Origin: a virus
Taxonomy: Duplodnaviria > Caudoviricetes
IMG/VR virus record: IMGVR_UViG_3300046710_000085
Coordinates: 1-30,205 of that record
Direction: 5' to 3' (one strand)
Length of the DNA: 30,205 nt
The notes beneath the pieces were generated by a model, which worked only from the letters and a program-made list of their open reading frames with translations, made no database searches and was not told the origin of the DNA. The translations under genes were made by a program, and so were the position numbers. Each line of letters begins with the position of its first letter. The stretch's first letter is position 1. Shown here piece after piece: positions 5,076-30,205 of the stretch.

Positions 5076-5510
5076 GTGGCAAAATCAAAACCTCCTCGTT
5101 GTTCTATTTGCGCGGACAAAAATCGATGTGCAATAGACCTAGAATACATCAGATCGCGAGATCAACGCGGAACTGCGCGGAAATTCAAGGTATCTGAAGA
5201 TGCTCTTTGGAGGCACATAGACAAGGGGCACATTTCGGAAGCAGTGAAAGCCTCTGAGAATGTAAATCTCGCTAATCATGGTCTGAACATGCAGACATGT
5301 GCTCAAGAGATCTATGAAGTTGCCGTTGGATCTGCCAAAGACGCCCGGGCAGCTCGTCAATTTGGTGCGGTGGGATCTTGCTTGAATCCCGCGGCCAAAG
5401 TCCTGGAGATCCTGAACAAAGGCAATGACAAAGACGACGACCGACCCGGTATAGATCGAGCAGTGGAACAAATGAAGCATGACAGAGACGTTAGAAGAGC
5501 CAAGTTATGA
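5076..5510 (+). CDS. terS: Terminase small subunit (putative)
   Basis: Directly upstream of and overlapping terL; N-terminal CxxC and HTH-like QRGTARKFKVSEDALWRH. Confidence 0.7.
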   Translation: MAKSKPPRCSICADKNRCAIDLEYIRSRDQRGTARKFKVSEDALWRHIDKGHISEAVKASENVNLANHGLNMQTCAQEIYEVAVGSAKDARAARQFGAVGSCLNPAAKVLEILNKGNDKDDDRPGIDRAVEQMKHDRDVRRAKL

Positions 5511-6768
5511 CGGCTGGCTTTTTCCAGAACCCGATTCGAAACATGAAGATGTCATTTTAGATTTCAATTTCGAAGATTATAAGCTATCCGTTCTTTGGGG
5601 TTCGGTCTCCAGCGGAAAGACTGTAAGCAGCTCCGAAGCCTGGGTGAGCCTCATCAAACGTGCTCCCAAGCATTATCCCTTCGCCATGATAGGGAAGACA
5701 GAACTCACCCTGGAAGCTAATGTCTTAGACCCGCTAACCGATTGGCTAGGGTCCGATGTCTGTTATAAGCGCGGAAACGTGGCCTGGATCTATGGGCATA
5801 AGGTAAGGCTTTACGGGGCCAACGATGCCAAAAGCAGATCCAAGATACAAGGCAAGTCTCTCTATGCCTGGTATGGTGACGAAGTAACCACCTGGCCGGA
5901 AGACTTCTTTATGATGGCCTTGTCCCGGCTCAGGGTTGGAAAGTCGAAGGCGATCCTCACCATGAACCCCGAGGGGCCGTATCATTGGTTCCATAAACAG
6001 ATTATAGAACGGGCAGATAATCCTGCGATCCGGGCAAAACTCTATCATTTCACGATGGAAGACAACCCATATCTTCCAAAGGATTACAAAGAATGGATTT
6101 CTAGCTTGTATGTACCTGGCACGGTATGGCACAAGAGATGGATTCTCGGAGAATGGGCAGCAGCGGAAGGAGCTATTTATGATTTCTTTGACCCCGAACC
6201 AAAAGGCGGTTATGTAGTCAATGAAGTTCCTGAAGAATTCGACCGATATCATGTAGGCATAGATTATGCCAACTCTTCTGTTAATGTGATGCTTCTGTTA
6301 GGTCGTTCTGCCGAGGTCTGGTATCTCCTCAGAGAGAAATATTGGGACGCCAAGAAGCAGGGCCACCAGAAGACCAACACGGAATACTCTAAAGACTTTG
6401 CGGATTTGATAGAGGGCAAACGCGTTAGAACAGACTGTGATCCTGGTGGCGGTGGAGCGGGGCTAATCACGCAATTGAGGCGGGATTGGCAAGGGCATGG
6501 CTATATCATCAATGCAGCTATGAACCCTGTTATCCCTGGCATCCAGGCCGTGACCAGCCTCATGACCTCGGGGAAACTTAAGATTCATTCTTCTTGTCGA
6601 AATACGATACAAGAAATTTCTAATTATGTTTGGGACTCTAAAGCCCAAGAGAAGGGCGAGGACAAGCCCCTAAAAGTGAATGACCATTGCGTGGACGCGC
6701 TTAGATACGCTATTTTGAGGGAAACAGCAGGCACAATGAAAGTAGGCCCGAAGCCCGCAGGATTCTAA
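5479..6768 (+). CDS. terL: Terminase large subunit (PBSX/SPP1-like)
   Basis: Walker A GSVSSGKT, Walker B WYGDEV, coupling motif TMNPEGP, nuclease motifs VGIDY and NDHCVDALRY. Confidence 0.97.
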   Translation: MTETLEEPSYDGWLFPEPDSKHEDVILDFNFEDYKLSVLWGSVSSGKTVSSSEAWVSLIKRAPKHYPFAMIGKTELTLEANVLDPLTDWLGSDVCYKRGNVAWIYGHKVRLYGANDAKSRSKIQGKSLYAWYGDEVTTWPEDFFMMALSRLRVGKSKAILTMNPEGPYHWFHKQIIERADNPAIRAKLYHFTMEDNPYLPKDYKEWISSLYVPGTVWHKRWILGEWAAAEGAIYDFFDPEPKGGYVVNEVPEEFDRYHVGIDYANSSVNVMLLLGRSAEVWYLLREKYWDAKKQGHQKTNTEYSKDFADLIEGKRVRTDCDPGGGGAGLITQLRRDWQGHGYIINAAMNPVIPGIQAVTSLMTSGKLKIHSSCRNTIQEISNYVWDSKAQEKGEDKPLKVNDHCVDALRYAILRETAGTMKVGPKPAGF

Positions 6769-6771
6769 ATT

Positions 6772-7014
6772 ATGTTACGTTGTGTGATTTGTGGCGAAGA
6801 CCTGGGCGAGCATGACGGCTATATCCGGGGATCGATATCCGGGGAAGTCGTAGAGCTTCTATCTTCATCCACACCCAGGACAACGGGTCAAAAGAACTCC
6901 TGGGAGGGCGTGGCCTTCTGCCTGAAGCACTTCGAAGACATACCTAAGAACATTGCTGAGAACCTTGGATTGATCGCGAAAAATAGGAAGCTAAACGATG
7001 ATAACGGACACTGA
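6772..7014 (+). CDS. Small zinc-binding protein between terL and portal
   Basis: CVIC...CLKH ligands; fills the gap and overlaps the portal start. Confidence 0.6.
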   Translation: MLRCVICGEDLGEHDGYIRGSISGEVVELLSSSTPRTTGQKNSWEGVAFCLKHFEDIPKNIAENLGLIAKNRKLNDDNGH

Positions 7015-8485
7015 AAAGATTTTTGCGATTGGTCAACCCTGGCCACCCTCGGACCCAGATACCAAGGACCGCCTCGCTATCTATGAGCGAAACGAAAATC
7101 TTTTCGAGGGCTGTCATGAGAAGGTCTGGCAAGACGAACTCAGGAGGCTCCGGGGCGACAAGTCCGGAGACCTCAGGCTTAAACTCAATTACTTCCAACT
7201 GATATCCCTATTCTGGGCTGATATGGCAGTCGGTGAGGTCCCTGATGCTAAGGCAGATGAAGAGCAGCCGGCACAGGTCGACGCACTCAAGCGGATCATC
7301 CAGTGGACAGATCTCTGGTCAGTTCTGGATGATGCCATAATCGATATGAGCAAGTGTGGCGACGCTCCGATCAAGATCCGATACCAAGAGTACGGCATCG
7401 TCGAGAACATCCCACCGGAATACTGGTTTCCTGTTGTCGAAGCCTCGAATGTCAAGCAGCTCAAGGCGCACATCATAGCCTATGAGTTCGATGATCCAGG
7501 CACGCCGGCGCAGACCGTTGATATCCCGACGATGATCCCTGCCACCGCGCAGCTTACCGACGCGCAGATCAAGGCGGTAGAATCGGGGAATGTCCTGACA
7601 TCTTCTGATAAGATCTCCTTTCTCAAGGTCGAAATTCATACGGTCGGGCAGATCGAGCACCGACTCTATCGGTTGAAAGATAAGAAGATCAATGCGCAAG
7701 TGGATCTCAATTCGTTCCCTGATTTCAAGGCGCTGCAATCTATTGAGCCAACGGGCTTAGACGATTTTGCTATTATCGTCCTACATAATACAACTTCCAC
7801 AAAAAGGTATCATGGTAAGGAAGACTATTCGATCTTCTTGGATGTGATCAAGGAACTGGAGATAAGATATCCTCAGGTTTTCTTCATACTGGACAAGCAC
7901 AGCGATCCTTCCATGTACGGTCCGCCTATGGAAGAGCAAGACCCTCGGGACGGAGAATACAAGGTACAGGGTGGTTCGAGGTATTACGCACTAGCTGACA
8001 AGGAGCAGGCAATACCGGGCATGATCACCTGGGATGGTCAGCTCGCGGCCAACTTTCAAGTCATAGCGGGCGAATCCTGGGGCCTCATGCAGAGATTCTA
8101 TGAACTGTCCGAGACTTCCAAGGTCTGTTTCGATTCTAGCGCGGGCGGGCAAGGACTGTCTGCCCAGGCTCTTAGGCTCATGATGTGGAAGCCACTCAAG
8201 AAGGCAAACAAGATCCAGAGGCGGCTTACTCCGGTCGTACAGCAGCTTATCAGGCTCGCGTCCCTGGCTGAAGTGAACATGTCCATGAAGGACGCTGTAG
8301 TGATCGAGAACGTTACAATCAATTGGCATGATGGAATGCCGGTAGACGAGAGCGCGGACGCCCAGAGGGACTCAACGCTAGTCACTGGAAAAGTCCGAAG
8401 CACGCAAGGACTGATGCGTGACAAGGGCAAATCCGAAAATGAGATCACACAAGAAATAACAGAAATGCGTGAGCAAGTAGTTTAA
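6998..8485 (+). CDS. Portal protein (SPP1 gp6-like)
   Basis: 495 aa directly after terL. Motifs WPP, LNYFQLIS, ILDKHSDPSMYGP, ITWDGQL, SAQALRL and INWHDGMPVD are typical of this family. Confidence 0.9.
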   Translation: MITDTEKIFAIGQPWPPSDPDTKDRLAIYERNENLFEGCHEKVWQDELRRLRGDKSGDLRLKLNYFQLISLFWADMAVGEVPDAKADEEQPAQVDALKRIIQWTDLWSVLDDAIIDMSKCGDAPIKIRYQEYGIVENIPPEYWFPVVEASNVKQLKAHIIAYEFDDPGTPAQTVDIPTMIPATAQLTDAQIKAVESGNVLTSSDKISFLKVEIHTVGQIEHRLYRLKDKKINAQVDLNSFPDFKALQSIEPTGLDDFAIIVLHNTTSTKRYHGKEDYSIFLDVIKELEIRYPQVFFILDKHSDPSMYGPPMEEQDPRDGEYKVQGGSRYYALADKEQAIPGMITWDGQLAANFQVIAGESWGLMQRFYELSETSKVCFDSSAGGQGLSAQALRLMMWKPLKKANKIQRRLTPVVQQLIRLASLAEVNMSMKDAVVIENVTINWHDGMPVDESADAQRDSTLVTGKVRSTQGLMRDKGKSENEITQEITEMREQVV

Positions 8486-8527
8486 TTTCTTTTTCCTAAT
8501 AACAATCATAGCATCGGGGGTGAAAAA

Positions 8528-8638
8528 ATGGCAGATGAAGTAAAGGTAAAAGACGGCGACAAGGAAACCACAACCACATTCAAGAGCAAAGCCGCAGCGG
8601 ATAGGGCGGGTAGGCTACCTGAAAAAGATAAGAAGTGA
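8528..8638 (+). CDS. Micro-ORF, 36 aa (MADEVKVKDGDKETTTTFKSKAAADRAGRLPEKDKK)
   Basis: Below the ORF-track cut-off; strong SD GGGGGTGA at correct spacing; fills the portal-scaffold gap. Confidence 0.6.
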   Translation: MADEVKVKDGDKETTTTFKSKAAADRAGRLPEKDKK

Positions 8639-8716
8639 TTCTCAACAATTATTTTTTCCTAATAATAAACATCACAATCACGGCTACTGGATGCCTAATC
8701 CAGGGAGATATCTCTT

Positions 8717-9352
8717 ATGCCAGAAACAGATGCAACAACTCAAGCGGCCACGTCAACCGCAACCAATGGCGAGAAAGAACAGCAGCAACAGGCAATCACG
8801 GCAGCAAAGCCGGAAACCAAGACACTCACACAAGTCGAAATAGACGCAATAGTCGAAGATCGGCTTGCACGCGATCGGAAGACGCGGGAAGAGAAGCTTG
8901 CAACTGATCTGGGAATGTCCCTCAAGGAAGCAAAGGCCCTTATCGTAGCTCAGAAGAAAGCAAAAGAAGATGAGAAGACTGCTCTTGAGTTGGCAAATGA
9001 AAAGTCTGCCAATCTGGAGAAGTCCCTCAAGGACCGAGATCTCCGAGACTTCAAGCGGACAACTATCGATCAGATGATCGCGGATAAGAAGATCAAGCTT
9101 CCGGATGGCGTTTCAATTTCTGACGTTCTCGATATGGTCAATGGACCCGACGAGGACGGGATTCTTAAGAGCGCGGGGAAACTGCCGAAGTTCTTCCCGT
9201 TTAACGCATCGATGGGCACTAGCACAAACCCGGCCAACACCGCCGCCAAGCCTGCAAACATCGATGAGCAGATCAAAGCCGCTGAGAAAACAGGCAACTG
9301 GAACTTGGCGACTAGCCTTAAAATGGCTAAACAACGCGAAATGTTCAAATAA
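8717..9352 (+). CDS. Capsid scaffolding protein
   Basis: KTLTQVEIDAIVEDRLARDRK motif, coiled coil, position directly before the capsid gene. Confidence 0.85.
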   Translation: MPETDATTQAATSTATNGEKEQQQQAITAAKPETKTLTQVEIDAIVEDRLARDRKTREEKLATDLGMSLKEAKALIVAQKKAKEDEKTALELANEKSANLEKSLKDRDLRDFKRTTIDQMIADKKIKLPDGVSISDVLDMVNGPDEDGILKSAGKLPKFFPFNASMGTSTNPANTAAKPANIDEQIKAAEKTGNWNLATSLKMAKQREMFK

Positions 9353-9366
9353 AGGAGATAAGATAT

Positions 9367-10374
9367 ATGGCAAATTCTGATACCATAACAACTTCGTTTC
9401 TGACTCCCCAGTATCATGGGCAGCTTCTAACCCAGGGATCGCCTAAGACCCGTTTCCTCGCAATGATTGGAGGGCTCGGTGGTGGCGGCGCAAAGAGAGC
9501 CAGAGGCTGGCAGTTCGCTATGAACAGTCATAACGCTCTGGACGCCAGTGCTCAGGAAGACGTGACTGAGACCGAAGCCCAGACCGCACCCACACCCAGG
9601 AACTATGATCGAGGCCAGGACACTCAGGTCTGCCAGATATTCCATGAAGGAGTAGGCGCTACCTGGGCGGCAGAATCCGATCTCACCAAGCTTTCGGGTC
9701 TGTCCATTACGGGTGATGTCGAGGACATCAACGATCCGTGGGTTTCCAACATGAACATGACGATCGCTCAGATGGCCCAGAACGTCGAATACAATATGCT
9801 GAACGGCCTATACAAGGTCGCTGCAAACGTGGGCGAATCTAACCAGATGCGAGGCATCTTCTCCAGGACAGTCCAGGGGGGCGGCGCAGGAGTTACCCTC
9901 ACCAGTAATGATGTAGATTGTGGCGGGGACGCACTCACCACCGCAGACATAGACGCCCTGATGCTCCTGATGAAGGAGACTGGAGGCAAAGAGGGTACCG
10001 ATGGCATAACCATTGTGGGTAGGTATAGCTCCTTGAAGAAGCTTGCAGACCTCTATGGCATATCTGTGGCGGCCGGACCCTTGAACAATATAGGAACGGT
10101 CGCAGGCCAGATAGACACCATCGTCACCCAGGGCGGCAGGTTCCCTCTGGTTGAGGTTCCTCAGATGCCTGCTGCCACGCTCGGCTTCCTGAACATGTCC
10201 AAGATCAGCCCCGTATTCCTTCCGGTCCCTGAGAAGAACGGCAGACCTGGAGGCTATTTGTTCTACACTCCGCTCGCTCTCACAGGCGCAGCCGACAAGG
10301 GCCAGCTCTACGGCCAGATCTCGATAGACATCGGCGCAGAAGAATTTCATGGCGCCGTCTGGGATTTCATCTGA
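9367..10374 (+). CDS. Major capsid protein (HK97 fold, SU10/DUF5309-like)
   Basis: 335 aa after the scaffold; motifs KTRFLAMIGG, TQVCQIF, QMRGI and GQLYGQISIDIGAEEFHG. Confidence 0.9.
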   Translation: MANSDTITTSFLTPQYHGQLLTQGSPKTRFLAMIGGLGGGGAKRARGWQFAMNSHNALDASAQEDVTETEAQTAPTPRNYDRGQDTQVCQIFHEGVGATWAAESDLTKLSGLSITGDVEDINDPWVSNMNMTIAQMAQNVEYNMLNGLYKVAANVGESNQMRGIFSRTVQGGGAGVTLTSNDVDCGGDALTTADIDALMLLMKETGGKEGTDGITIVGRYSSLKKLADLYGISVAAGPLNNIGTVAGQIDTIVTQGGRFPLVEVPQMPAATLGFLNMSKISPVFLPVPEKNGRPGGYLFYTPLALTGAADKGQLYGQISIDIGAEEFHGAVWDFI

Positions 10375-13263: not shown

Positions 13264-13584
13264 ATGGCACTTTACGATAATGTAACAAGGATTAGGAATA
13301 GCCTAGAGGCTGCCAGAGTTATAACCACAGGCCAAACCACTCTAACTGATGCTAATCAGAAACGGTTACATTCAGGTTCTATAATATACAAACGTCTGTT
13401 CCTTGCGTTAAGTCCTGCAAACCCAATTGGAGATCCAATATACGTGGGGTTGACAGGAGTTACTCCTTCTACCGGGTTTCCTGTCCCAGATATCGGAGAA
13501 CTGGTTATGATGAATATTGACATAAATACACTTTATGTTATCGGCACGGCAACTGATATAGTTTGTTGGAGGGGTGAAGTATGA
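13264..13584 (+). CDS. Small beta-rich putative virion protein
   Basis: SD GAGGTTGA; PIYVGLTGVTPSTGFPV; ATGA-coupled to the DGR target gene. Confidence 0.65.
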   Translation: MALYDNVTRIRNSLEAARVITTGQTTLTDANQKRLHSGSIIYKRLFLALSPANPIGDPIYVGLTGVTPSTGFPVPDIGELVMMNIDINTLYVIGTATDIVCWRGEV

Positions 13585-15398
13585 CATTGGATGCAATACT
13601 AAGAAGATTTCTGAAAGCACGTGATCAGGACATGGGCGGGCGTAAGCTCATGGCAGTGGGCGCGCCTACACAAGCGGGCGATGCAGTTCGCTGGGATGAG
13701 TTGCAGGTCGGCCTCAACTACATCATAGGTGTCGAGTGGGACACGTCAAGCAGCTCCCCGGCCCTAACGCAGATCGATGCCTATGGCACGGCGATCACCC
13801 AGAAGTCGCACGCCTGGTTCGACAGCCATCCCATTTACGGGAACATGTGGCGCTGCTTGCTGTCTGTGGCAGGAGTTCCCACGTTCGGCCAAAATGCCCG
13901 GGGAACCGGTCTCACGTTAGATGGTTCAGCCGGTCAAGTGATGGTTAGGATACCAAAGTGCTACGTCAAATCCGAGAAAGTCGATACCAAAATCCGATGG
14001 TGGATCTCGCCGGTGGCCTTTACAGGCTTTGAAATCCACCCCGCCTTCTTACAGCGAGGTGGCATCGAAAGGGCGCAGCTCTATCTGGGTGCCTATGCAG
14101 CCTGCCTGGGCATCGTTCCTGTGACGGGCGTAAAGTATCTCGTATCCAAGTCTGGCGAACAGCCGCTTACAGGTGGTGAGATTATCGAAGTCTCGTTCGA
14201 TTCCGGATCTGTGGCCCCGGTCGTGGGTGAAATCATCACAGGCGAACCCAGTCTCATGAAAGGGGCTGTAGTCGCGTCATATGTAGCGACAGGATCTTAC
14301 GCAGGAGGGGACGCGGCAGGAAAAGTCTACGTCAAGGCTGTCTCGAGAAGACTGAATTTCAATACCGGTGGACACGAACCTGTGGTAGGTGAAGTCATCA
14401 CAGGAGCCACGTCAGGGGCAACGGGAATCTGTTCAAAGGTCGTTGTCACCTCGGGCTCATGGGGAACCAGTGATGCTTTAGGATACATCTTGCTCGAAGG
14501 CGGGAGCGGTAATGGATATGCCTATACGGTCGCCGAGAACATCCGGGACCCAAGCAGCAACGTGGTCGCAAAACCTACAGACGACGGCTCGACGTTAGGG
14601 CAGTTCACCGTTGGCGGTAACTTTGATGGATCTGTCGGTGGAGCCAATCTGATGACCTGCCAGAGCGTAGGCAGCGCGCTGGCATTTACGAGACAAAATG
14701 CCGAAACTTATGCGAACAACATCGGATCGTCTCGTTGGGGCTGCGAGAACATTTGGTCACTCGATCTCGTAACTATGCTCTATCTGATCGAGTATGGGAA
14801 CTGGAATTCTCAGAGCGTATCGGTCGGGATTGGCCAAGGGGTTGTGAACAAATCAGCAGGGCGACGATTTAATGGCGAGATGAACGGTGCCTTGAGTGCA
14901 AATAGCAACATTGCCGTCAATGGAACAGGCACCGGAACAGGAACCGACGGTTTGACCCCCATAGTTTACCGGGGTATCGAGAATCTCTGGGGCAACGTCT
15001 ACCAATTCGTCATTGGGCTGGACGCACTCGATGCTGCTTATAGAATTCTGAATCGAAACGGAACTGGGGTCCCGGCTTGTCCTTTAACAGCCGGAAACTA
15101 CGAAAGTTCCGTGGCAGCTCCGATTGCTTATAACGTCTCGACTATGCCGGACGGATACGCAAAAGATCTGCTATACGAGGATCTTACCAAGTATCTCTGC
15201 ATAGCAAACTTGGGCGCAGGCTCTTCAGGCACCTATCTCTGCGATATGATTTATTGGCACAGGCCTGGGCAAGTGAATGTTTGGCTCGTCGGTAGCTTTT
15301 GGTCCGTTGGCGCGCTTACGGGTGTCGGCTATCGGTCTGCGATTTTCGTTGCGTCGCTTTCGGCTCGTGGTGTCGGGGCGCGGCCCGAGTTCGTATGA
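13581..15398 (+). CDS. DGR target protein: putative fibre/receptor-binding protein with C-terminal C-type-lectin-fold variable domain
   Basis: GFEIHPAF, YLGAYAA, MLYLIEYGNWNSQ, YRGIENLWGNVYQF and the terminal GARPEF are typical of CLec-fold DGR targets. The last 40 codons contain the VR. Confidence 0.9.
   Translation: MTLDAILRRFLKARDQDMGGRKLMAVGAPTQAGDAVRWDELQVGLNYIIGVEWDTSSSSPALTQIDAYGTAITQKSHAWFDSHPIYGNMWRCLLSVAGVPTFGQNARGTGLTLDGSAGQVMVRIPKCYVKSEKVDTKIRWWISPVAFTGFEIHPAFLQRGGIERAQLYLGAYAACLGIVPVTGVKYLVSKSGEQPLTGGEIIEVSFDSGSVAPVVGEIITGEPSLMKGAVVASYVATGSYAGGDAAGKVYVKAVSRRLNFNTGGHEPVVGEVITGATSGATGICSKVVVTSGSWGTSDALGYILLEGGSGNGYAYTVAENIRDPSSNVVAKPTDDGSTLGQFTVGGNFDGSVGGANLMTCQSVGSALAFTRQNAETYANNIGSSRWGCENIWSLDLVTMLYLIEYGNWNSQSVSVGIGQGVVNKSAGRRFNGEMNGALSANSNIAVNGTGTGTGTDGLTPIVYRGIENLWGNVYQFVIGLDALDAAYRILNRNGTGVPACPLTAGNYESSVAAPIAYNVSTMPDGYAKDLLYEDLTKYLCIANLGAGSSGTYLCDMIYWHRPGQVNVWLVGSFWSVGALTGVGYRSAIFVASLSARGVGARPEFV
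15279..15389 (+). repeat. DGR variable repeat (VR)
   Basis: Ungapped 111-bp match to 15760-15870; 28 mismatches, every one opposite an A in TR. Confidence 0.97.
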
Positions 15399-15421
15399 GA
15401 ACGTAGCACGGAAGACGAAAA

Positions 15422-15730
15422 ATGGGATACCAGAGGTTCTCCGAGTTCGCAAAAGAGGATAAACACTTAGAAGGCCCCAAGAAGAGGATTGACGAGGCTT
15501 TAAACCTCGAAATCCTTATCACGGGCTACAAAATAGGTAAAAGCCGGTACAAGAATAGAAACAGCAACGAAGATATGGATTACCTATCTTTGCAAATAGA
15601 GATCAACGGTGAAAAGTTTGTAATCTTTACCGGCTCGCGTGTATTGGCAGAGCAAGTAGAAAAATACAAAGACAAAATACCGTTCTTGGCAAAAATTGTC
15701 AAGATAGATCGGTATTATTCCTTGTCCTAA
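15422..15730 (+). CDS. DGR accessory protein, not Avd-like (102 aa)
   Basis: Occupies the accessory slot between VR and TR. Alternating beta-strand patterns (EILITGYKI, YLSLQIEING, KFVIFTGS, FLAKIVKI) are unlike the all-helical Avd. Confidence 0.8.
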   Translation: MGYQRFSEFAKEDKHLEGPKKRIDEALNLEILITGYKIGKSRYKNRNSNEDMDYLSLQIEINGEKFVIFTGSRVLAEQVEKYKDKIPFLAKIVKIDRYYSLS

Positions 15731-15991
15731 AAATCAGGGTTGGTCAGGTCACGAAAGCTGTTTGGATCGTCAGTAGCAATTGGAACAATGGCACGAATAC
15801 AGGTGTCGGCTATCGGAATGCGAATAACGTTACGTCGAATTCGAATCGTAATATCGGAGCACAGCCCGAGCTCGGGAGAGCTAAGTCTCGAACAGTGACT
15901 TAACCAGAACCGAAAGGTCAAATACACTACGAACTGAGGTGCGGTGTTAGTACCGAAAGGGAAAGTTCGGCACCTCAGCGAGGCTATTTTC
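15731..15991 (+). ncRNA. Predicted DGR template RNA (5' flank + TR + structured spacer)
   Basis: 15741-15752 can pair with 15895-15906. GNRA hairpins AGCTC-GGGA-GAGCT and ACC-GAAA-GGT. 9-bp stem CTGAGGTGC/GCACCTCAG. Boundaries are approximate. Confidence 0.7.
15760..15870 (+). repeat. DGR template repeat (TR)
   Basis: Intergenic copy of VR with 8 AAT and 2 AAC triplets in the VR reading frame; 33 adenines in total. Confidence 0.97.
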
Positions 15992-17038
15992 ATGAAGCGA
16001 CATGGGAACCTTTACAGTCGAATATGCGACATGGAAAACCTCAAGCTTGCCCATATTAATGCTCGAAAAGGCAAACTCCGTTATAGTGAAGTTCAAAACG
16101 TCAATCAGAACCCTGCGATGTATCTGAGCGGCCTGCGAAGAATGCTTCTTGATAAGACCTACAAGACCGCGCCCTATAAGCTCATGCAGGTTTATGAGCC
16201 GAAGAAGCGCACTATCTACAAGCTGCCATACTATCCTGATCGGATTGCGCATCATGCTATCATGAACGTGCTGCAACCCATCTGGGACAAGACCTTCATA
16301 GATGATGTCTACTCTGCCATCCCGGGCCGAGGGCTCCACGCGGGCCTTATCAGATTAAGGCAGTTCATGAGAGACGAGCCAGGCACTCAATATTGCCTAA
16401 AGTTCGATATCAGCAAGTTCTATCCATCGGTTGATCATGAGATTCTCTTAGATCTCATCTGGCGCAAGATCAAGTGCAAGGACACAATGTGGCTCCTGGA
16501 AGAAATTATTCGTAGTCCAGGCGGAAATAAGAACATCCCTATAGGCAATTACCTCTCCCAGTATTTTGCTCAGATCTATCTGGATCCACTGGATAGATGG
16601 ATTAAAGAAGAAAACCATATGCACTATTACATTCGTTATGGAGACGATGGCGTTATCCTTCATAGCGATCGGAAATTCCTGAAGGATTTGCTGACCGGAA
16701 TCGCAGGCTTCATGAAAGAACACCTCGATTTGACCATCAATTCCAAGAGCCGCGTGTTCCCCGCCGATTCGGCCGGGATAGACTTCCTGGGATACCGGAC
16801 TTTCCGAGACTATTCATTGCTTCGGTCAAGTGCGGCAAAGAGGTTCAAGAAAAAGATCCACTTCATAGAAGAAAATCATGCTTCGATGGAACCTCAGACG
16901 ATTGTAAGCGTGATCATGTCCTACCTCGGATGGATCGGATTTTGCAATGGTTACAATCTGAAAAGGAAATATGTCACCGAAAATGATAAAATTTTATCAA
17001 TATTAACACAGGCGAACGAGGTACTTCATGCAAGATAG
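15992..17038 (+). CDS. DGR reverse transcriptase (348 aa)
   Basis: Start MKRHGNLYSRI..ENLKLAH..ARKGK; YPDRIAHHA; YCLKFDISKFYPSVDH; IPIGNYLSQ (SQ signature of DGR RTs); catalytic YIRYGDD; GIDFLGY. Confidence 0.97.
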   Translation: MKRHGNLYSRICDMENLKLAHINARKGKLRYSEVQNVNQNPAMYLSGLRRMLLDKTYKTAPYKLMQVYEPKKRTIYKLPYYPDRIAHHAIMNVLQPIWDKTFIDDVYSAIPGRGLHAGLIRLRQFMRDEPGTQYCLKFDISKFYPSVDHEILLDLIWRKIKCKDTMWLLEEIIRSPGGNKNIPIGNYLSQYFAQIYLDPLDRWIKEENHMHYYIRYGDDGVILHSDRKFLKDLLTGIAGFMKEHLDLTINSKSRVFPADSAGIDFLGYRTFRDYSLLRSSAAKRFKKKIHFIEENHASMEPQTIVSVIMSYLGWIGFCNGYNLKRKYVTENDKILSILTQANEVLHAR

Positions 17039-17345
17039 ATCAAATATCCAGAAGCCCTGGGTTGAACTAGGGCAGATCACAAAGAGCGTCGGAGGTTGGA
17101 TCATCAAAGACCTCCTCGTTCGATGGAACGAAACACAAGTGACCAAGGACGGGCAGACCGACATGGGCGCGGGCGAGCAGACAGAATTTGTGTACGATGC
17201 GTATCGGTTCGATTACCCATTGCCCGCAGAAGTACAACCCGGGCAAGAGGCAGTAGAATACTATCTGGAGCAGGCAAAAACTGCTATCATCCAGACCGCT
17301 CAGGACTTGGTCGCGCAGGAGGCGGGTTTTCTTGACACTAACTGA
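17028..17345 (+). CDS. Hypothetical protein, possibly fibre-associated/assembly protein
   Basis: SD GAGGT; overlaps the RT stop; LLVRWNETQV...EFVYD. Confidence 0.65.
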   Translation: MQDRSNIQKPWVELGQITKSVGGWIIKDLLVRWNETQVTKDGQTDMGAGEQTEFVYDAYRFDYPLPAEVQPGQEAVEYYLEQAKTAIIQTAQDLVAQEAGFLDTN

Positions 17346-17556: not shown

Positions 17557-17675
17557 TTTTTTGGTCGGGCTCTGCTGCTCAATCAGTTTGGCTTTCCTAC
17601 CTTCGATTGCATCAGAGTCCGGCCCTCCTTCATCTTTTGTAAATAATAATCAGAACAATATGAGGTGAGAAAGAA

Positions 17676-18218
17676 ATGATAAAGACAATTATATTCCTAC
17701 TGCTGCTGATTCCTATCGGCTCGGCGCTATCTGAAAATCTTCGAGTGTCCGGTCAGATAGATGCCTGGCATGATGGGGCAATAAGCGACCGAGCATCGGG
17801 CACCGGCACAATGGAATATGCTGCAGAAGGCTATCTGGGTGGCTTCAGTTCAGGCTTCAATCTGTCTAATGGCCAGGGAAGCTATTCTTTCAAGGCCGAT
17901 GACTATTCCCTCCAGATTTCGGACTTTTCCGGATCTGCTATAGGAGAGTCGGATTCTGCAAGCACCACGGCTGATGTCAATGGAACTGGAACGCTCAAAA
18001 CCAAATCTTACGATAATTCTCGGCGAGGGGTGCTCATGCTTGGTATGCAATCAGGCGAGATCAATGCCAGGGGCATTATTCTTGGATTCCACGCCAGCAC
18101 TGGAAGAGCTATCGACAACGCAAGCCCGGATCTGATGGATACCAATGCGACAGAAGGCGAGCCTGTAGGTAATGTGACTGCCTTCCAGATCAATTCTAGC
18201 ATGGAGTTTTCAATATGA
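17676..18218 (+). CDS. Secreted beta-rich protein with signal peptide
   Basis: SD GAGGTGA; MIKTIIFLLLLIPIGSA; six N-X-S/T sequons. Confidence 0.75.
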   Translation: MIKTIIFLLLLIPIGSALSENLRVSGQIDAWHDGAISDRASGTGTMEYAAEGYLGGFSSGFNLSNGQGSYSFKADDYSLQISDFSGSAIGESDSASTTADVNGTGTLKTKSYDNSRRGVLMLGMQSGEINARGIILGFHASTGRAIDNASPDLMDTNATEGEPVGNVTAFQINSSMEFSI

Positions 18219-19751: not shown

Positions 19752-20054
19752 ATGAAAAAGACGCTTTCAATTCTCGTAATTGCATTAGCTGCAATTGGTA
19801 TTGTATCGGCTCAAGACCTGATTAAGGGCACTCAAAATGGTGGGCCAGCCCAGCTCTCCGGCCTATCGCCTGACATCTTCGATGGAAATTTCTTTCAGTC
19901 AGATGGATGGACCTTTGACACAACTTCCTATAGCCTGACCCCGAGCATGACGGCTTTCCTGAAAGACGATGCAAAAGATGGGGCGCCATTCTTCGTCAAC
20001 AAGACTGCTTACCTGGGGCAACCTGCCAGCAAGAACGATCCCCGGGTGATGTGA
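19752..20054 (+). CDS. Small secreted protein with signal peptide
   Basis: ATG 19752 with SD AGGTG; MKKTLSILVIALAAIGIVSA. Confidence 0.7.
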   Translation: MKKTLSILVIALAAIGIVSAQDLIKGTQNGGPAQLSGLSPDIFDGNFFQSDGWTFDTTSYSLTPSMTAFLKDDAKDGAPFFVNKTAYLGQPASKNDPRVM

Positions 20055-20866
20055 TGGCAGAACATTCTTTTGGCTGGCTCAAACAAGAACCTGATTCAAG
20101 GGACTATAGCATCGATCATGAAGCAGTGCGGGCCATGTTCGCAGGCCTGCCTAAAGTATTGCCTCCCTCTGCAGATCTCCGGCCTTATAGCATTCCTGTC
20201 ATGGACCAGGGCAACCTGGGCTCCTGTACAGCCAACGCCCTGGATGCGATGGTCGGATACTTCTATGAGAAGGCAGGAACAGCGAAGGACTTCCGGGGTG
20301 CCAGGCTCTTCAATTACTTCTATGCCCGGAAGCTGGAGGGAACTGTAAGCTACGATTCAGGAGCCACTATCAGGGATATCGTGAAGACCTTTGCCAAGAA
20401 CGGCATGGCGAAAGAAACTCTATGGCCGTACCTGATAAACAAGTATCGGACAACGCCTTCTGCAAAAGTCATCACAGATGCATCCAAGCGCAAGGCCTCC
20501 GCCTATGTGCTCATCGATCTGCCTGGAATGACTCCGGCACAGGTGATAACGGCCACCAAGACCCAACTGGCGGCAGGAAACGCTCTTGAGTTTGGTACCA
20601 ACTGTTATCAATCCATCATGAACGTGGGTACAAGTGGCCTTATCCCGGCCCCGAAGAAGGGCGAGACGCCCGCTGGAGGACATGCTTTGTGTCTGATGGG
20701 TTATGATGACAGCAAGAAGGCTTTCCTGATTCAGAACTCTTGGGGCCTATCCTGGGGCATGAAGGGCTTTGGATGGCTACCGTATTCGTATTTTCAGACA
20801 GGATACCAGGGACAACCGGACGCCTGCGATGTTTGGACCGTAACTAAAGCTTCGTGGAGTGTATGA
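20054..20866 (+). CDS. Papain-like cysteine peptidase (family C1), candidate lysis enzyme
   Basis: DQGNLGSCTANA (oxyanion Q, catalytic C), GGHALCLMGY (H), IQNSWGLSWGMKGFGWLPY (N). Confidence 0.93.
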   Translation: MAEHSFGWLKQEPDSRDYSIDHEAVRAMFAGLPKVLPPSADLRPYSIPVMDQGNLGSCTANALDAMVGYFYEKAGTAKDFRGARLFNYFYARKLEGTVSYDSGATIRDIVKTFAKNGMAKETLWPYLINKYRTTPSAKVITDASKRKASAYVLIDLPGMTPAQVITATKTQLAAGNALEFGTNCYQSIMNVGTSGLIPAPKKGETPAGGHALCLMGYDDSKKAFLIQNSWGLSWGMKGFGWLPYSYFQTGYQGQPDACDVWTVTKASWSV

Positions 20867-26663: not shown

Positions 26664-29600
26664 GTGATTTTTATAGGTGCTGAAGATCTTGCATATAGAG
26701 CCACACTTGACTTAAGTTCGTGGGCAAATAGTATCAAGCAAATGGGCTCCGACATGGGGAATACCGCCAAGAATATGGCTTCCAGTATCGAGAAGGGGGC
26801 GGGCGACTTTGGCGCGCTGGGTGGCAAGTTGGGATCTCAGCTTGTTTCTGGTCTAACGTCGCAATTTGGCACTTTAGGGAAGTTGGGAGGCACACTTGGG
26901 AGTGTACTCTCAACAGCAATGGCAAGTCCTGTGGCTGGGGCGATAGCAGGCGTAGCCGCGATAGGCGCACTGACAGCCGGGATAACTCAGTGTGCTGATG
27001 CAGCCGGAGGCTTCCAGAAAACTATGGCTCAGGTCGCCTCCGCCACCGGAGAATCCTATTCCAGCCTCGCTAGTGGGATCGAGGATATGACTCGTGGAAC
27101 CGGCACAAGCATGACAGAAGCCGGGGCTGCAGCTCTTCAATTATCAGATACATTCAAAAATAATAAGGATATTCTGGACGCACTTCACGGTTCTCTGTTG
27201 TTGTCGAAAGGGGCGCATATGGATTTATCCAGTGCCATTACAACCACATCCGGTGTATTAACACAATTCAATTTATCTGCGACAGATTCAGATCGAGCCG
27301 CCAATGTCTTCGTTGCCGGAGCGCAACACTCCAAAGAATCTGCCACACAGTTGGGGCAGGCAGTTGAAGCAGTCGGACCTACTGCCAAGAACCTCGGAAT
27401 GTCCCTGGAAGAGACAACTGCTATGATGATGGCTTTTGGAGACTCCAATCTCAAGGGAGCCGAGGCCGGGTCAGCCTTTGCCATGTCGATGAAGGGGCTG
27501 ACTAAGGATAACAAATCAGTAACTGATAGCTTGTCGGCTATGGGGCTCACGTTCGACCAGGTCAATCCACAGATGCACTCGATGGATGAGATAATCAACA
27601 CCCTGGCGGCTCATCACATGACACTGGCCGAGTCACAAGCCCTGTTTGGTCGATCCGGGGCGGCCATGTATGCGGTCGTTTCGGATGGCACAGGGAAACT
27701 TGAGAAATATCAGACCGCGATAACCGGCACTACCGCCGCCGTGGATGCCGCCAAGGTTGCAGGCAATAACTATGAATCCACAATGAAAAAGTTCGGGGTG
27801 GCCGTCGAATCTGCTGAAATAGCTCTTGGGAATGTGTTCATCCCGGTCCTGACCAATGTCTTGTCTGTAATGACAGAGCTGACTGTCGAATCTGTCCTTT
27901 TCTGCGAACGATTGGGAGAGATCCCAGCCAAGATAACAGCAGCGTTAGCACCAACCATCAAGAAAGGAGATACTTTCATTCTGGATCTCTTAGGGTTATC
28001 AGGAACGGCCAATCAAACCCAAGTAATATCCGCTCAAGCGATGGGCACGAAGATAGCAGGGGTCTATAGCGACTATCTGGGCAAGGGCATAACTGCCAAG
28101 TCTGGAGAGATCGCAGACCAAACCGGGAATGCTCTTGGGGGAGAAGTGGCCCTGAAGGCTGCTAGAGATGCCGCTGATAAGACTGCAAAGGAATTTACCG
28201 ACAGATTCGGGTCACAGTACGAGGCCGGCATGGCTCAGATGGCAGACGGCACTTATAAAAGTTGGGATGCCATTGTTGATCAACTCGCGGGCAGCACCGG
28301 GTCGGACACGAAAATAGCGAACGCTTTCGATTATCTAGGAAAACAGCTTGAACTGGGTGTCACCCGTACAAGTCAGCGATTGAATAATTATGTACTGACG
28401 TCACAAGGCACAATAATCGGACAGCTCAGTAACCAGACTTTCTATGATCCATTAAAAGCGTTCGAGTTGATGACTGGTATGCCCGCTCCTGAAAAAGGAA
28501 CCGCCGCATATTTCCGTCTGCTCGGGGATGCAAGTCAGGCGCAAATCGTCGAAATGAAAGCTACTTTGGAGAAGGAGACAAATGCCGCCTTCAAAGAGCT
28601 TGAAATCGACACGCCTACATTAAATTTCAAGATGGGACTCAGTAATCAAATTGACCCCGTTGTGCAGGAATACGCAAAAAATTTCTCGGATGGATTTAAA
28701 AACATCGATTGGCAGAACCTGCCCGGCATGGTTGCAACCGCCGGAAATTTAAAAACATGGGCTAAAAATAATTTGTTACCGTTTGAAGCCGATTCTCTCG
28801 GCGCAACCATCGATCAGCAGATGGCCGACTACAAAGCCCATCTGGTAGCCGGAATAGCCGACGCGGGAACTTTTGTCAAAGATGCCATGGGCAAAATGGG
28901 GAAGGATGCTACTCAAGCCTTCTCGGATGGGTTCATTTCAGACTCGGAGAAGACTATGCTCCTGGGTCTGAAGCCTCAGCTAGAACTCTTGCAGCAGCAA
29001 TCTCCCGAAGAATTCCGCAAGGCAGGCGGGGATTCCATGCTTGCCATGATCGATGAAGTCCAGAAAGGCGACTTGCCAGGAGCATTCGCTGCAATCGGAA
29101 AGAAGTGCGGCGAAGACTTCAAAGAGAATGTCCTTGGTGGTATGTCCGAGACTGTAAAGGGCCTCAAAGATATCATCAATGATCCTAATCTTTTGAAGGA
29201 TTCCATTGCCGATCCTATGCGATTTTACACAGGCACTATCAAGCCTGCTCTGGAACAGATGAAAAAGGATGGCGACGAAGCGTTGGCATCCGGTCAGCAG
29301 AGTGCGAACCAGTTATATAATGAATATGTGGGTCAACTCTATAAAGTATATAATCTAGTTCCTGGATATGTCCAAAAAGCCATAGATCTTTTTGCAACCA
29401 TTAATCCGGCTACAGGGGAGGGCATGATCTCCTGGCAAGAGATGAACAATATAATAGATCGGGGCAACGGTCTACTCGACACAGCAAACGGCAAGGCGAC
29501 TCAATTTTCATCAACCTTACAAACCGGAACGGGCACCACTCTCACTTATGATGCTGCACACAAGCAACTGACCGCCACTTTGGCCGGACATTCTGCGCAA

Positions 29601-30205
29601 ATCCCGGAACTGAGTGCGAAGGTGAATGATTTAGACCAGAAATACCATAACGGGGTACTCACCGTTGATCAGTACAAGTCTGCCATAGTTGATCTAGCCA
29701 CCAACGCACTGCCTAAAACATCATCGGCGGCTATGGACGCCGGAAAGGGCATAGATTTTATCACGGTATCGGCAAATTCGTCTACAGGCGCGGTCAACAA
29801 TTTACAAGTCGCGTTAGGCTCATTGATTGCCACCCTCAACAGCATCCCAGGCGGAGCGGCAATTCCATCAAACTTTGGCAACTTCTTCGGGACAAACAAC
29901 CAGGCCCCGGCCAAGCCTTCGGCAGCAACCCCCTCATCTGGTTATGCGAATCCTGTCTCAAATCCTGTTTCATCATCTCCTGTCGTATATGGAAACCTCG
30001 GGCCTGGCGTATCGTCTCCGGTCGGGGATTTCCTGAAGTCCTTTGGAACCGTGCAACAATCTACCGTGCCCCTGACATCTCCTTCGAGCACCTCGGCATC
30101 GCAGGCCGTTCCTGTGGTCATCATGAATCAGGCGAGCAATCCGAGCATTATCAGCAACCCCTATGACGCCGTTAAGATGGATTATGCCGCAAGCCCCTGG
30201 TTGAA
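26664..30205 (+). CDS. Tape measure protein (TP901-like core), 3'-truncated, about 1180 codons in the window
   Basis: Absent from the ORF track because it has no stop in the window. Manual translation shows it open to the end. Contains FQKTMAQV, LTQFNLSATDSDRAANVFVAGAQHS, VGPTAKNLGMSLEETTA and LKGAEAGSA. Confidence 0.93.
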   Translation, partial: MIFIGAEDLAYRATLDLSSWANSIKQMGSDMGNTAKNMASSIEKGAGDFGALGGKLGSQLVSGLTSQFGTLGKLGGTLGSVLSTAMASPVAGAIAGVAAIGALTAGITQCADAAGGFQKTMAQVASATGESYSSLASGIEDMTRGTGTSMTEAGAAALQLSDTFKNNKDILDALHGSLLLSKGAHMDLSSAITTTSGVLTQFNLSATDSDRAANVFVAGAQHSKESATQLGQAVEAVGPTAKNLGMSLEETTAMMMAFGDSNLKGAEAGSAFAMSMKGLTKDNKSVTDSLSAMGLTFDQVNPQMHSMDEIINTLAAHHMTLAESQALFGRSGAAMYAVVSDGTGKLEKYQTAITGTTAAVDAAKVAGNNYESTMKKFGVAVESAEIALGNVFIPVLTNVLSVMTELTVESVLFCERLGEIPAKITAALAPTIKKGDTFILDLLGLSGTANQTQVISAQAMGTKIAGVYSDYLGKGITAKSGEIADQTGNALGGEVALKAARDAADKTAKEFTDRFGSQYEAGMAQMADGTYKSWDAIVDQLAGSTGSDTKIANAFDYLGKQLELGVTRTSQRLNNYVLTSQGTIIGQLSNQTFYDPLKAFELMTGMPAPEKGTAAYFRLLGDASQAQIVEMKATLEKETNAAFKELEIDTPTLNFKMGLSNQIDPVVQEYAKNFSDGFKNIDWQNLPGMVATAGNLKTWAKNNLLPFEADSLGATIDQQMADYKAHLVAGIADAGTFVKDAMGKMGKDATQAFSDGFISDSEKTMLLGLKPQLELLQQQSPEEFRKAGGDSMLAMIDEVQKGDLPGAFAAIGKKCGEDFKENVLGGMSETVKGLKDIINDPNLLKDSIADPMRFYTGTIKPALEQMKKDGDEALASGQQSANQLYNEYVGQLYKVYNLVPGYVQKAIDLFATINPATGEGMISWQEMNNIIDRGNGLLDTANGKATQFSSTLQTGTGTTLTYDAAHKQLTATLAGHSAQIPELSAKVNDLDQKYHNGVLTVDQYKSAIVDLATNALPKTSSAAMDAGKGIDFITVSANSSTGAVNNLQVALGSLIATLNSIPGGAAIPSNFGNFFGTNNQAPAKPSAATPSSGYANPVSNPVSSSPVVYGNLGPGVSSPVGDFLKSFGTVQQSTVPLTSPSSTSASQAVPVVIMNQASNPSIISNPYDAVKMDYAASPWL

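Follow-up and report, generated by a model that had tools for sequence, protein, structure and literature searches.

A diversity-generating retroelement with a predicted OB-fold accessory protein in a tailed virus of a probable Methanothrix host

The window analyzed here is the 30,205-base virus record IMGVR_UViG_3300046710_000085, which is all of this genome that the analysis covered. It carries a diversity-generating retroelement (DGR) that consists of a variable repeat (VR) in a tail protein gene, a template repeat (TR) as well as a reverse transcriptase (RT), with a small open reading frame, ORF102, placed between the two repeats (Table 1). Our analysis confirms that this is a genuine and intact DGR. 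We consider it reasonably probable that the element belongs to a tailed virus whose likely host is Methanothrix, an acetate-using methanogen, that it rewrites the C-terminal tip of the tail protein, and that ORF102 replaces Avd, the accessory protein of the BPP-1 DGR. Taken alone, the VR/TR pair and the RT are an ordinary, clean example of a DGR, and DGRs of archaeal viruses are already known; what sets this one apart is its accessory gene, which is not avd. The original prediction, made from the DNA sequence without database searches, had described the element as complete and intact. This holds for the pattern of the repeats and the open RT frame, but the window encodes no Avd, and the different nature of the accessory gene had been overlooked.

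Repeats, reverse transcriptase and target protein

VR and TR align without gaps, and the pair originally placed at 15279-15389 and 15760-15870 reaches one base further 5', to 15278 and 15759. As had been predicted, the differences between them are confined to TR adenines, of which 85% are changed (A>G 12, A>T 10, A>C 6), with no difference at C, G or T. In five close sequences, the window and four relatives, each with its own VR, 130 of 166 adenines are changed and there is one non-adenine difference. The changed fraction has a P of 3e-5 under a 50% chance per site and a P of 0.13 under 75%; for BPP-1, about 50% per round has been reported (PMC6182149; this and the other papers are cited for the parts accessible to us). 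The high fraction could stem from repeated rounds of homing under selection or from a YGDD enzyme that is more error-prone. A VR free of non-adenine drift suggests that homing was recent.

The VR is in frame and encodes residues 566-603, the C terminus of the target protein. From its variable codons the TR could generate about 6e17 protein variants, and none of these codons is able to become a stop codon. All ten AAY codons of the TR have lost asparagine in the VR and now specify F, S, V, L, I, A or G; charged residues are absent from these sites. The rest of the record was searched for further VRs, as the original prediction had proposed. The next-best ungapped match to the TR in the 30,205 bases has 44 non-adenine mismatches on the plus strand and 42 on the minus strand; as at least 42 such mismatches separate it from the TR, chance is excluded for the VR/TR pair and there is no second VR.

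Table 1. Features of the DGR and its surroundings in the window
Feature	Position	Strand	Evidence or remark
Virus context: terminase, portal, scaffold, major capsid protein	5479..10374	+	Pfam/PHROG matches
Target gene, 605 aa, tail protein family	13581..15398	+	PHROG 5302 'tail protein', E 2.6e-48
Variable repeat (VR)	15278..15389	+	28/33 TR-adenine sites changed, 0 other differences
3' VR boundary, candidate initiation of mutagenic homing (IMH) site	15390..15398	+	First base past the repeat T in VR, C in TR
ORF102, non-Avd accessory gene, 102 residues, isoelectric point (pI) 9.0	15422..15730	+	Predicted OB fold, remote PAG1 homologue
Predicted long-range stem enclosing TR (15741-15752 with 15895-15906)	15741..15906	+	Single-sequence fold, z -2.2
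Template repeat (TR)	15759..15870	+	33 adenines, 10 AAY codons, 20 variable codons
Conserved hairpin, spacer RNA between TR and RT	15934..15978	+	Covariation in 16 sequences
DGR-type RT, 348 aa, IGNYLSQ + YGDD	15992..17038	+	RVT_1 E 1.7e-18; PHROG 1423 E 1.6e-114
ORF105	17028..17345	+	CRISPR spacer of genome G718 matches the initial 33 bases
Tape measure protein	26664-30203		Pfam/PHROG match

The RT was correctly predicted to be intact: its frame is open, it contains both YGDD and IGNYLSQ, a signature of DGR RTs, and the catalytic aspartates (D139, D218 and D219) are invariant. Its start was assigned to the ATG at 15992, where M-K-R is invariant in 40 RTs, and not to the GTG at 15944, which falls within the conserved RNA hairpin. 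The YGDD motif, noted earlier as uncommon, is found in eight of 158 distinct RTs, namely that of the window and its seven closest relatives (L001-L007), the other active-site motifs being YADD (92), YCDD (31) and YMDD (16). The nearest RT relatives carry TR/VR pairs.

The hairpin in the spacer shows changes on both sides in 12 of its 13 pairs among the 16 sequences, with a covariation score of 0.77 compared to 0.25 for shuffled alignments and 0.14-0.23 for slid partners. For the stem predicted to enclose the TR, paired changes were seen by eye in L003 and are unscored. At the 3' boundary the split between T in the VR and C in the TR lies at the same base in five of five sequences (the window and L001-L004). 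A stable hairpin 3' of the VR is absent from the window, the fold of 15380-15470 having a z-score of +0.88 and an empty centroid structure. Rfam gave no match at gathering score, and promoter and terminator scans returned chance-level hits only.

Homologues of the target are the VR-bearing genes of related loci. [quoted passage not shown] Its match to a tail protein family agrees with the first part, while the fold is less certain. The model of the last 261 residues is poor, with a predicted local distance difference test score (pLDDT) of 52; compared with 48,161 chains it matches only the DGR variable protein TaqVP (5vf4) at Z>=2 (Z 4.7, root-mean-square deviation 5.7, 179 residues aligned), and TaqVP is also the top row in Foldseek, with an E of 0.83. 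This low-confidence model weakly suggests a CLec fold for the VR domain. A comparison of the target with PDB sequences gave nothing useful, and a search for near-identical copies of it returned none. Within the protein, at residues of about 200-340, a unit of about 55-85 residues is duplicated, and in the close relatives L001-L004 the protein is 65-115 residues shorter, so that the number of repeats seems to be variable.

The accessory gene ORF102 and its relatives in other DGRs

Pfam bAvd did not match any of the 43 open reading frames of the window, with BPP-1 Avd as positive control (7e-36), nor did it match the neighbouring reading frames of related loci in the 116 scanned of 230 listed. 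ORF102 has no family match in Pfam, NCBIfam or PHROG. [quoted passage not shown] The BFVD matches are headed by RT-containing proteins, after which come phage SSBs interspersed with uncharacterised proteins, and an ESM Atlas cluster has PF17427 in 44% of its members, with a score of 0.94. Foldseek of the model against the PDB gave no match at E<=0.001. On these moderate scores ORF102 is predicted to be an OB-fold protein resembling SSBs. CH1 (160-169 aa, acidic), HRDC and MSL were considered as identities and rejected for their misfit in size, pI or Pfam.

An iterated ORF102 profile finds reading frames with the PAG1 motifs in L039, L043 and L044 at E-values of 2e-6 to 5e-13; the PAG1 alignment in the supplement of Wu et al. 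2018 was compared with these reading frames by eye only. Judged by sequence and by way of these intermediates, ORF102 is a remote homologue of PAG1. PAG1 was introduced as a tenuous candidate accessory protein from three DGRs, with no fold given in the accessible parts of that paper (Wu et al. 2018, PMC5758913). Compared with these three sequences, the ORF102 family comprises 893 clusters at 50% identity.

The family is tightly linked to DGR RTs. When loci were fetched by alignment to ORF102 alone, 73 of 78 new loci, counted without dereplication and including two that repeat contigs already in the set, had an RT within about 4 kb. Of the five remaining loci, L108 shares a contig with its RT (L006), and L109 has lost TR and RT. 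A strict scan detected a TR/VR pair in at least 44 of the 73 loci with both genes, a lower bound, as the same scan missed the known pair of L007. Conversely, an ORF102 homologue is present in 73 of 80 genome loci anchored on the RT. Across 151 loci with both genes, ORF102 is the immediate downstream neighbour of the RT in 105, more distant on that side in 24, upstream in 18 and fused to the RT in four; three more fusions occur among the representatives (P0082, P0156, P0161). In L194 (G002:C186) the target gene is followed directly by ORF105, and ORF102, TR and RT are absent together. These three therefore behave as a mobile core, whereas ORF105 accompanies the target gene. ORF105 and ORF74 were ruled out as DGR accessories, as both lie behind the target in L194, where no RT is present.

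Several further loci were observed. L194 also contains homologues of ORF74, ORF180 and ORF115 and amounts to a natural version of this tail locus without a DGR. L028, L029 and L030, on contigs of Methanomicrobiales and Bacteroidales metagenome-assembled genomes (MAGs), have ORF102-TR-RT cores without a VR directly upstream; in L030 a homologue of the target lies downstream of the RT, and the TRs of the three loci found no match in L194. Decayed cassettes are seen in P0014, where ORF102 is joined to an RT tail, and in L132:3860-4153, where a stretch resembling a TR continues into half of an ORF102 homologue. Loci with an RT and a member of the ORF102 family also occur on different RT branches in archaeal genomes (L213, G666:C19; L257, G443:C32; L195, G350:C138), L213 and L195 together with virus structural genes and a target with a VR-like end.

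The DGR of BPP-1 (mtd-avd-TR-brt) and that of the window share the order of target with VR, accessory gene, TR, spacer and RT, as well as adenine-only VR/TR differences, a tail-protein target and a structured spacer. They differ in two features of this BPP-1-type organization (architecture B): the accessory of the window is a predicted OB-fold protein without a bAvd match, and no stem-loop lies downstream of the VR. The window furthermore has a YGDD RT and a likely archaeal host.

The original prediction had called archaeal viral DGRs comparatively few, and this rarity was overstated: ANMV-1 is a published archaeal-virus DGR (Paul et al. 2015, PMC4372165; KP703175), and deposited methanogen viruses carry such RTs. 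Like the window, ANMV-1 has a target in the tail region, but the two targets are not alignable by BLASTP and its RT is only 32% identical and sits on a distant branch. In ANMV-1 the RT is followed by a gene homologous to ORF102 (42% identity, E 1e-29) that has no bAvd match; this downstream position, and a hairpin after the ANMV-1 VR, are both in contrast to the window. A figure legend in the ANMV-1 paper (PMC4372165) labels a reading frame as Avd. Caudoviricetes sp. vir525 (BK063673, host Methanosarcinales) likewise has a tail gene, an RT (43%) and an ORF102 homologue; its RT belongs to a different clade, shared with a virus contig in G666, and its accessory gene, which is unannotated, lies downstream of the RT. 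In a quick, midpoint-rooted tree of 53 of the 158 RTs, which gives no transfer order, the RTs of ANMV-1 and vir525 fall on branches other than that of the window. Rooted only in this way, the tree would suggest several entries of such RTs into archaeal viruses.

Lineage 3 has been described as comprising DGRs without avd (Wu et al. 2018, PMC5758913). The RT of one member, crAssphage LMMB, is 38% identical to the window RT, and it is by this identity, not by placement on the published tree, that the two were compared. The tail of the LMMB RT (L264:3494-3793) is a C-terminal extension that appears ORF102-like by eye, and a crAss RT record matches the ORF102 model in BFVD at an E of 7e-3. It was not counted as a fused ORF102-type domain, as the profile comparison gave an E of 0.38 and the iterated profile misses the tail. 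A literature search, for which most subscription papers were outside reach, returned no paper on an OB-fold DGR accessory or on a DGR of a Methanothrix virus.

The virus and its host

The assignment to a tailed virus was borne out by the recognition of terminase, portal, scaffold, capsid, head-tail adaptor and tape measure proteins. The record also contains a papain-family (Peptidase_C1) gene at 20051-20866 within a cluster of small membrane proteins, which is a candidate for an envelope-cutting lysis enzyme. An 803-residue reading frame at 3-2414 has a Walker-A-like motif and no match in Pfam, PHROG or NCBIfam; presumably it encodes a primase-helicase.

The archaeal host of the original prediction appears likely and can be narrowed. 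The proposed comparison with CRISPR spacers was carried out, and a spacer of G718 is identical in 31 of 33 bases at 17028-17060, the start of ORF105. The second-ranking ones of the 197 spacers have 10 mismatches in the window, and three shuffles gave 11 or more. Spacers of G683 and G696 match the related loci L108 (within its ORF102 gene) and L192, each with 7 mismatches. The McrG protein of G718 falls into a cluster whose organism-labelled members are Methanothrix. When the first 20 kb were compared with 392 genomes of one archaeal class, 11 showed DNA matches, eight of them in the 105-genome family of G718; the matches examined further were those outside G669, G719 and G562. Short matches in G301 and G668 lie outside CRISPR arrays and were dropped as chance. 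In G717 and G663, scaffold and capsid DNA is matched at 63-66% on short contigs. From these sequence comparisons the host is very probably a methanogen and, with somewhat less confidence, Methanothrix.

Other searches added little. The terminase gave only 36-38% matches among phages, which are uninformative for the host, and searches with ORF180 returned no host name. A search with the capsid protein found no relative in genome contigs and none in three MAGs, and a search of metagenomes with the tail tube gave two short contigs only. The non-coding stretch 17562-17683 before ORF180 has matches at 75-76% in two genomes that belong to the G718 family (L199, L200), where the matching DNA lies upstream of a gene; this may be a promoter region common to them.

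Proposed mechanism, alternatives and significance

In BPP-1, RT, Avd and an RNA of TR and spacer together yield adenine-mutagenised cDNA, and the RT alone is inactive (PMC6182149). By analogy, an RNA spanning TR and spacer would be transcribed in the virus studied here and reverse-transcribed with errors at adenines, and the mutagenised cDNA would then replace the VR by adenine-specific retrohoming. ORF102 would bind the RT together with either the spacer RNA or the newly made cDNA, making synthesis processive, as Avd does in BPP-1; we regard it as an RT partner because RT fusions exist and because the BPP-1 RT is inactive without Avd. The variants of the target, a probable receptor-binding tail protein, may tune binding to the host envelope.

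A number of observations weigh against parts of this interpretation. All Z-scores for the OB fold of ORF102 are below 8, a range that the comparison tool calls common, and the CLec fold of the target depends on a model with a pLDDT of 52 and a Foldseek E of 0.83. Seventeen loci (L008-L024, 14 of them with TR/VR) have related RTs that are 47-49% identical, and their fetched DNA contains no ORF102 homologue even by iterated profile; ORF102 is therefore not universal in this RT group. This absence, the predicted SSB-like fold and the missing hairpin 3' of the VR would also suit a DGR that needs no accessory for cDNA synthesis, in which ORF102 acts later and, like an SSB, protects or anneals the cDNA at integration. 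ExoI inhibits a reconstituted DGR, and single-stranded targets on the lagging strand are favoured (PMC12875486), which points in the same direction. The RT fusions and the inactivity of the BPP-1 RT on its own fit an enzyme partner instead, and we consider an exclusively later role unlikely. Protection of the cDNA is nevertheless the main rival to a role as RT cofactor, and the two roles are not exclusive of each other. That ORF102 is a passenger virus gene kept beside DGRs by shared descent is a caution that has been voiced for PAG1-4 (Wu et al. 2018, PMC5758913), and L109, which retains ORF102 despite the loss of TR and RT, as well as the counting of loci without dereplication, would be in line with it. 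The gene is, however, found on either side of the RT and fused to it, L194 lacks it along with TR and RT, and it accompanies distant RTs such as those of ANMV-1 (RT 32%, ORF102 42% identical) and of Bacteroidota prophages, which makes a mere passenger very improbable.

The element could also be intact but dormant, with the VR being a fixed, selected allele from past activity. Related loci do decay, as in L109 and in P0014 with its joining of ORF102 to the RT tail. Dormancy nevertheless seems rather unlikely to us, given that the absence of non-adenine VR/TR differences, the open RT and the intact hairpin speak for recent homing. As to the host, the G718 spacer match is imperfect: counted along the whole spacer, the window differs at 7 positions and L002 at 6. 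Furthermore, among the closest RTs from named genomes (54-58%), some lie on contigs of bacterial MAGs and others on contigs of Methanomicrobiales. L194, binned with Methanoregula, L028 and L029 are in Methanomicrobiales MAGs, and L027 and L030-L034 are in bacterial MAGs. Another methanogen of the Methanomicrobiales or a bacterium would accommodate these loci. With lengths of 2-6 kb, most of the contigs in bacterial MAGs are short, L031 with 41 kb being an exception, and they may have been binned wrongly; such a host leaves unexplained why eight of the 11 matching genomes belong to the family of G718 and why two further spacers of that family match relatives of the virus. A host other than Methanothrix is accordingly judged improbable.

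In the catalogue of Wu et al. 2018 (PMC5758913), avd is present in 275 of 372 DGRs, so that about a quarter are without it. How such elements work despite the dependence of the BPP-1 RT on Avd becomes a testable question with a named, small candidate cofactor that has natural RT fusions, and a two- or three-component in vitro assay would be the format for ORF102. In a wider view, which we regard as evenly balanced, a large class of Avd-less DGRs, including those of ANMV-1 and Methanothrix viruses, would run on an OB-fold RT cofactor that is unrelated to the Avd pentamer and replaces it, is open to fusion with the RT and has passed between the viruses of bacteria and those of archaea on several occasions, and the YGDD clade may mutate adenines near a ceiling of 75%. 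A single-chain ORF102-RT fusion would suit tools for targeted mutagenesis. For archaeal virology, the target described here is a candidate for the receptor-binding protein of a probable Methanothrix virus, its host being a methanogen with a sheath (PMC11576556).

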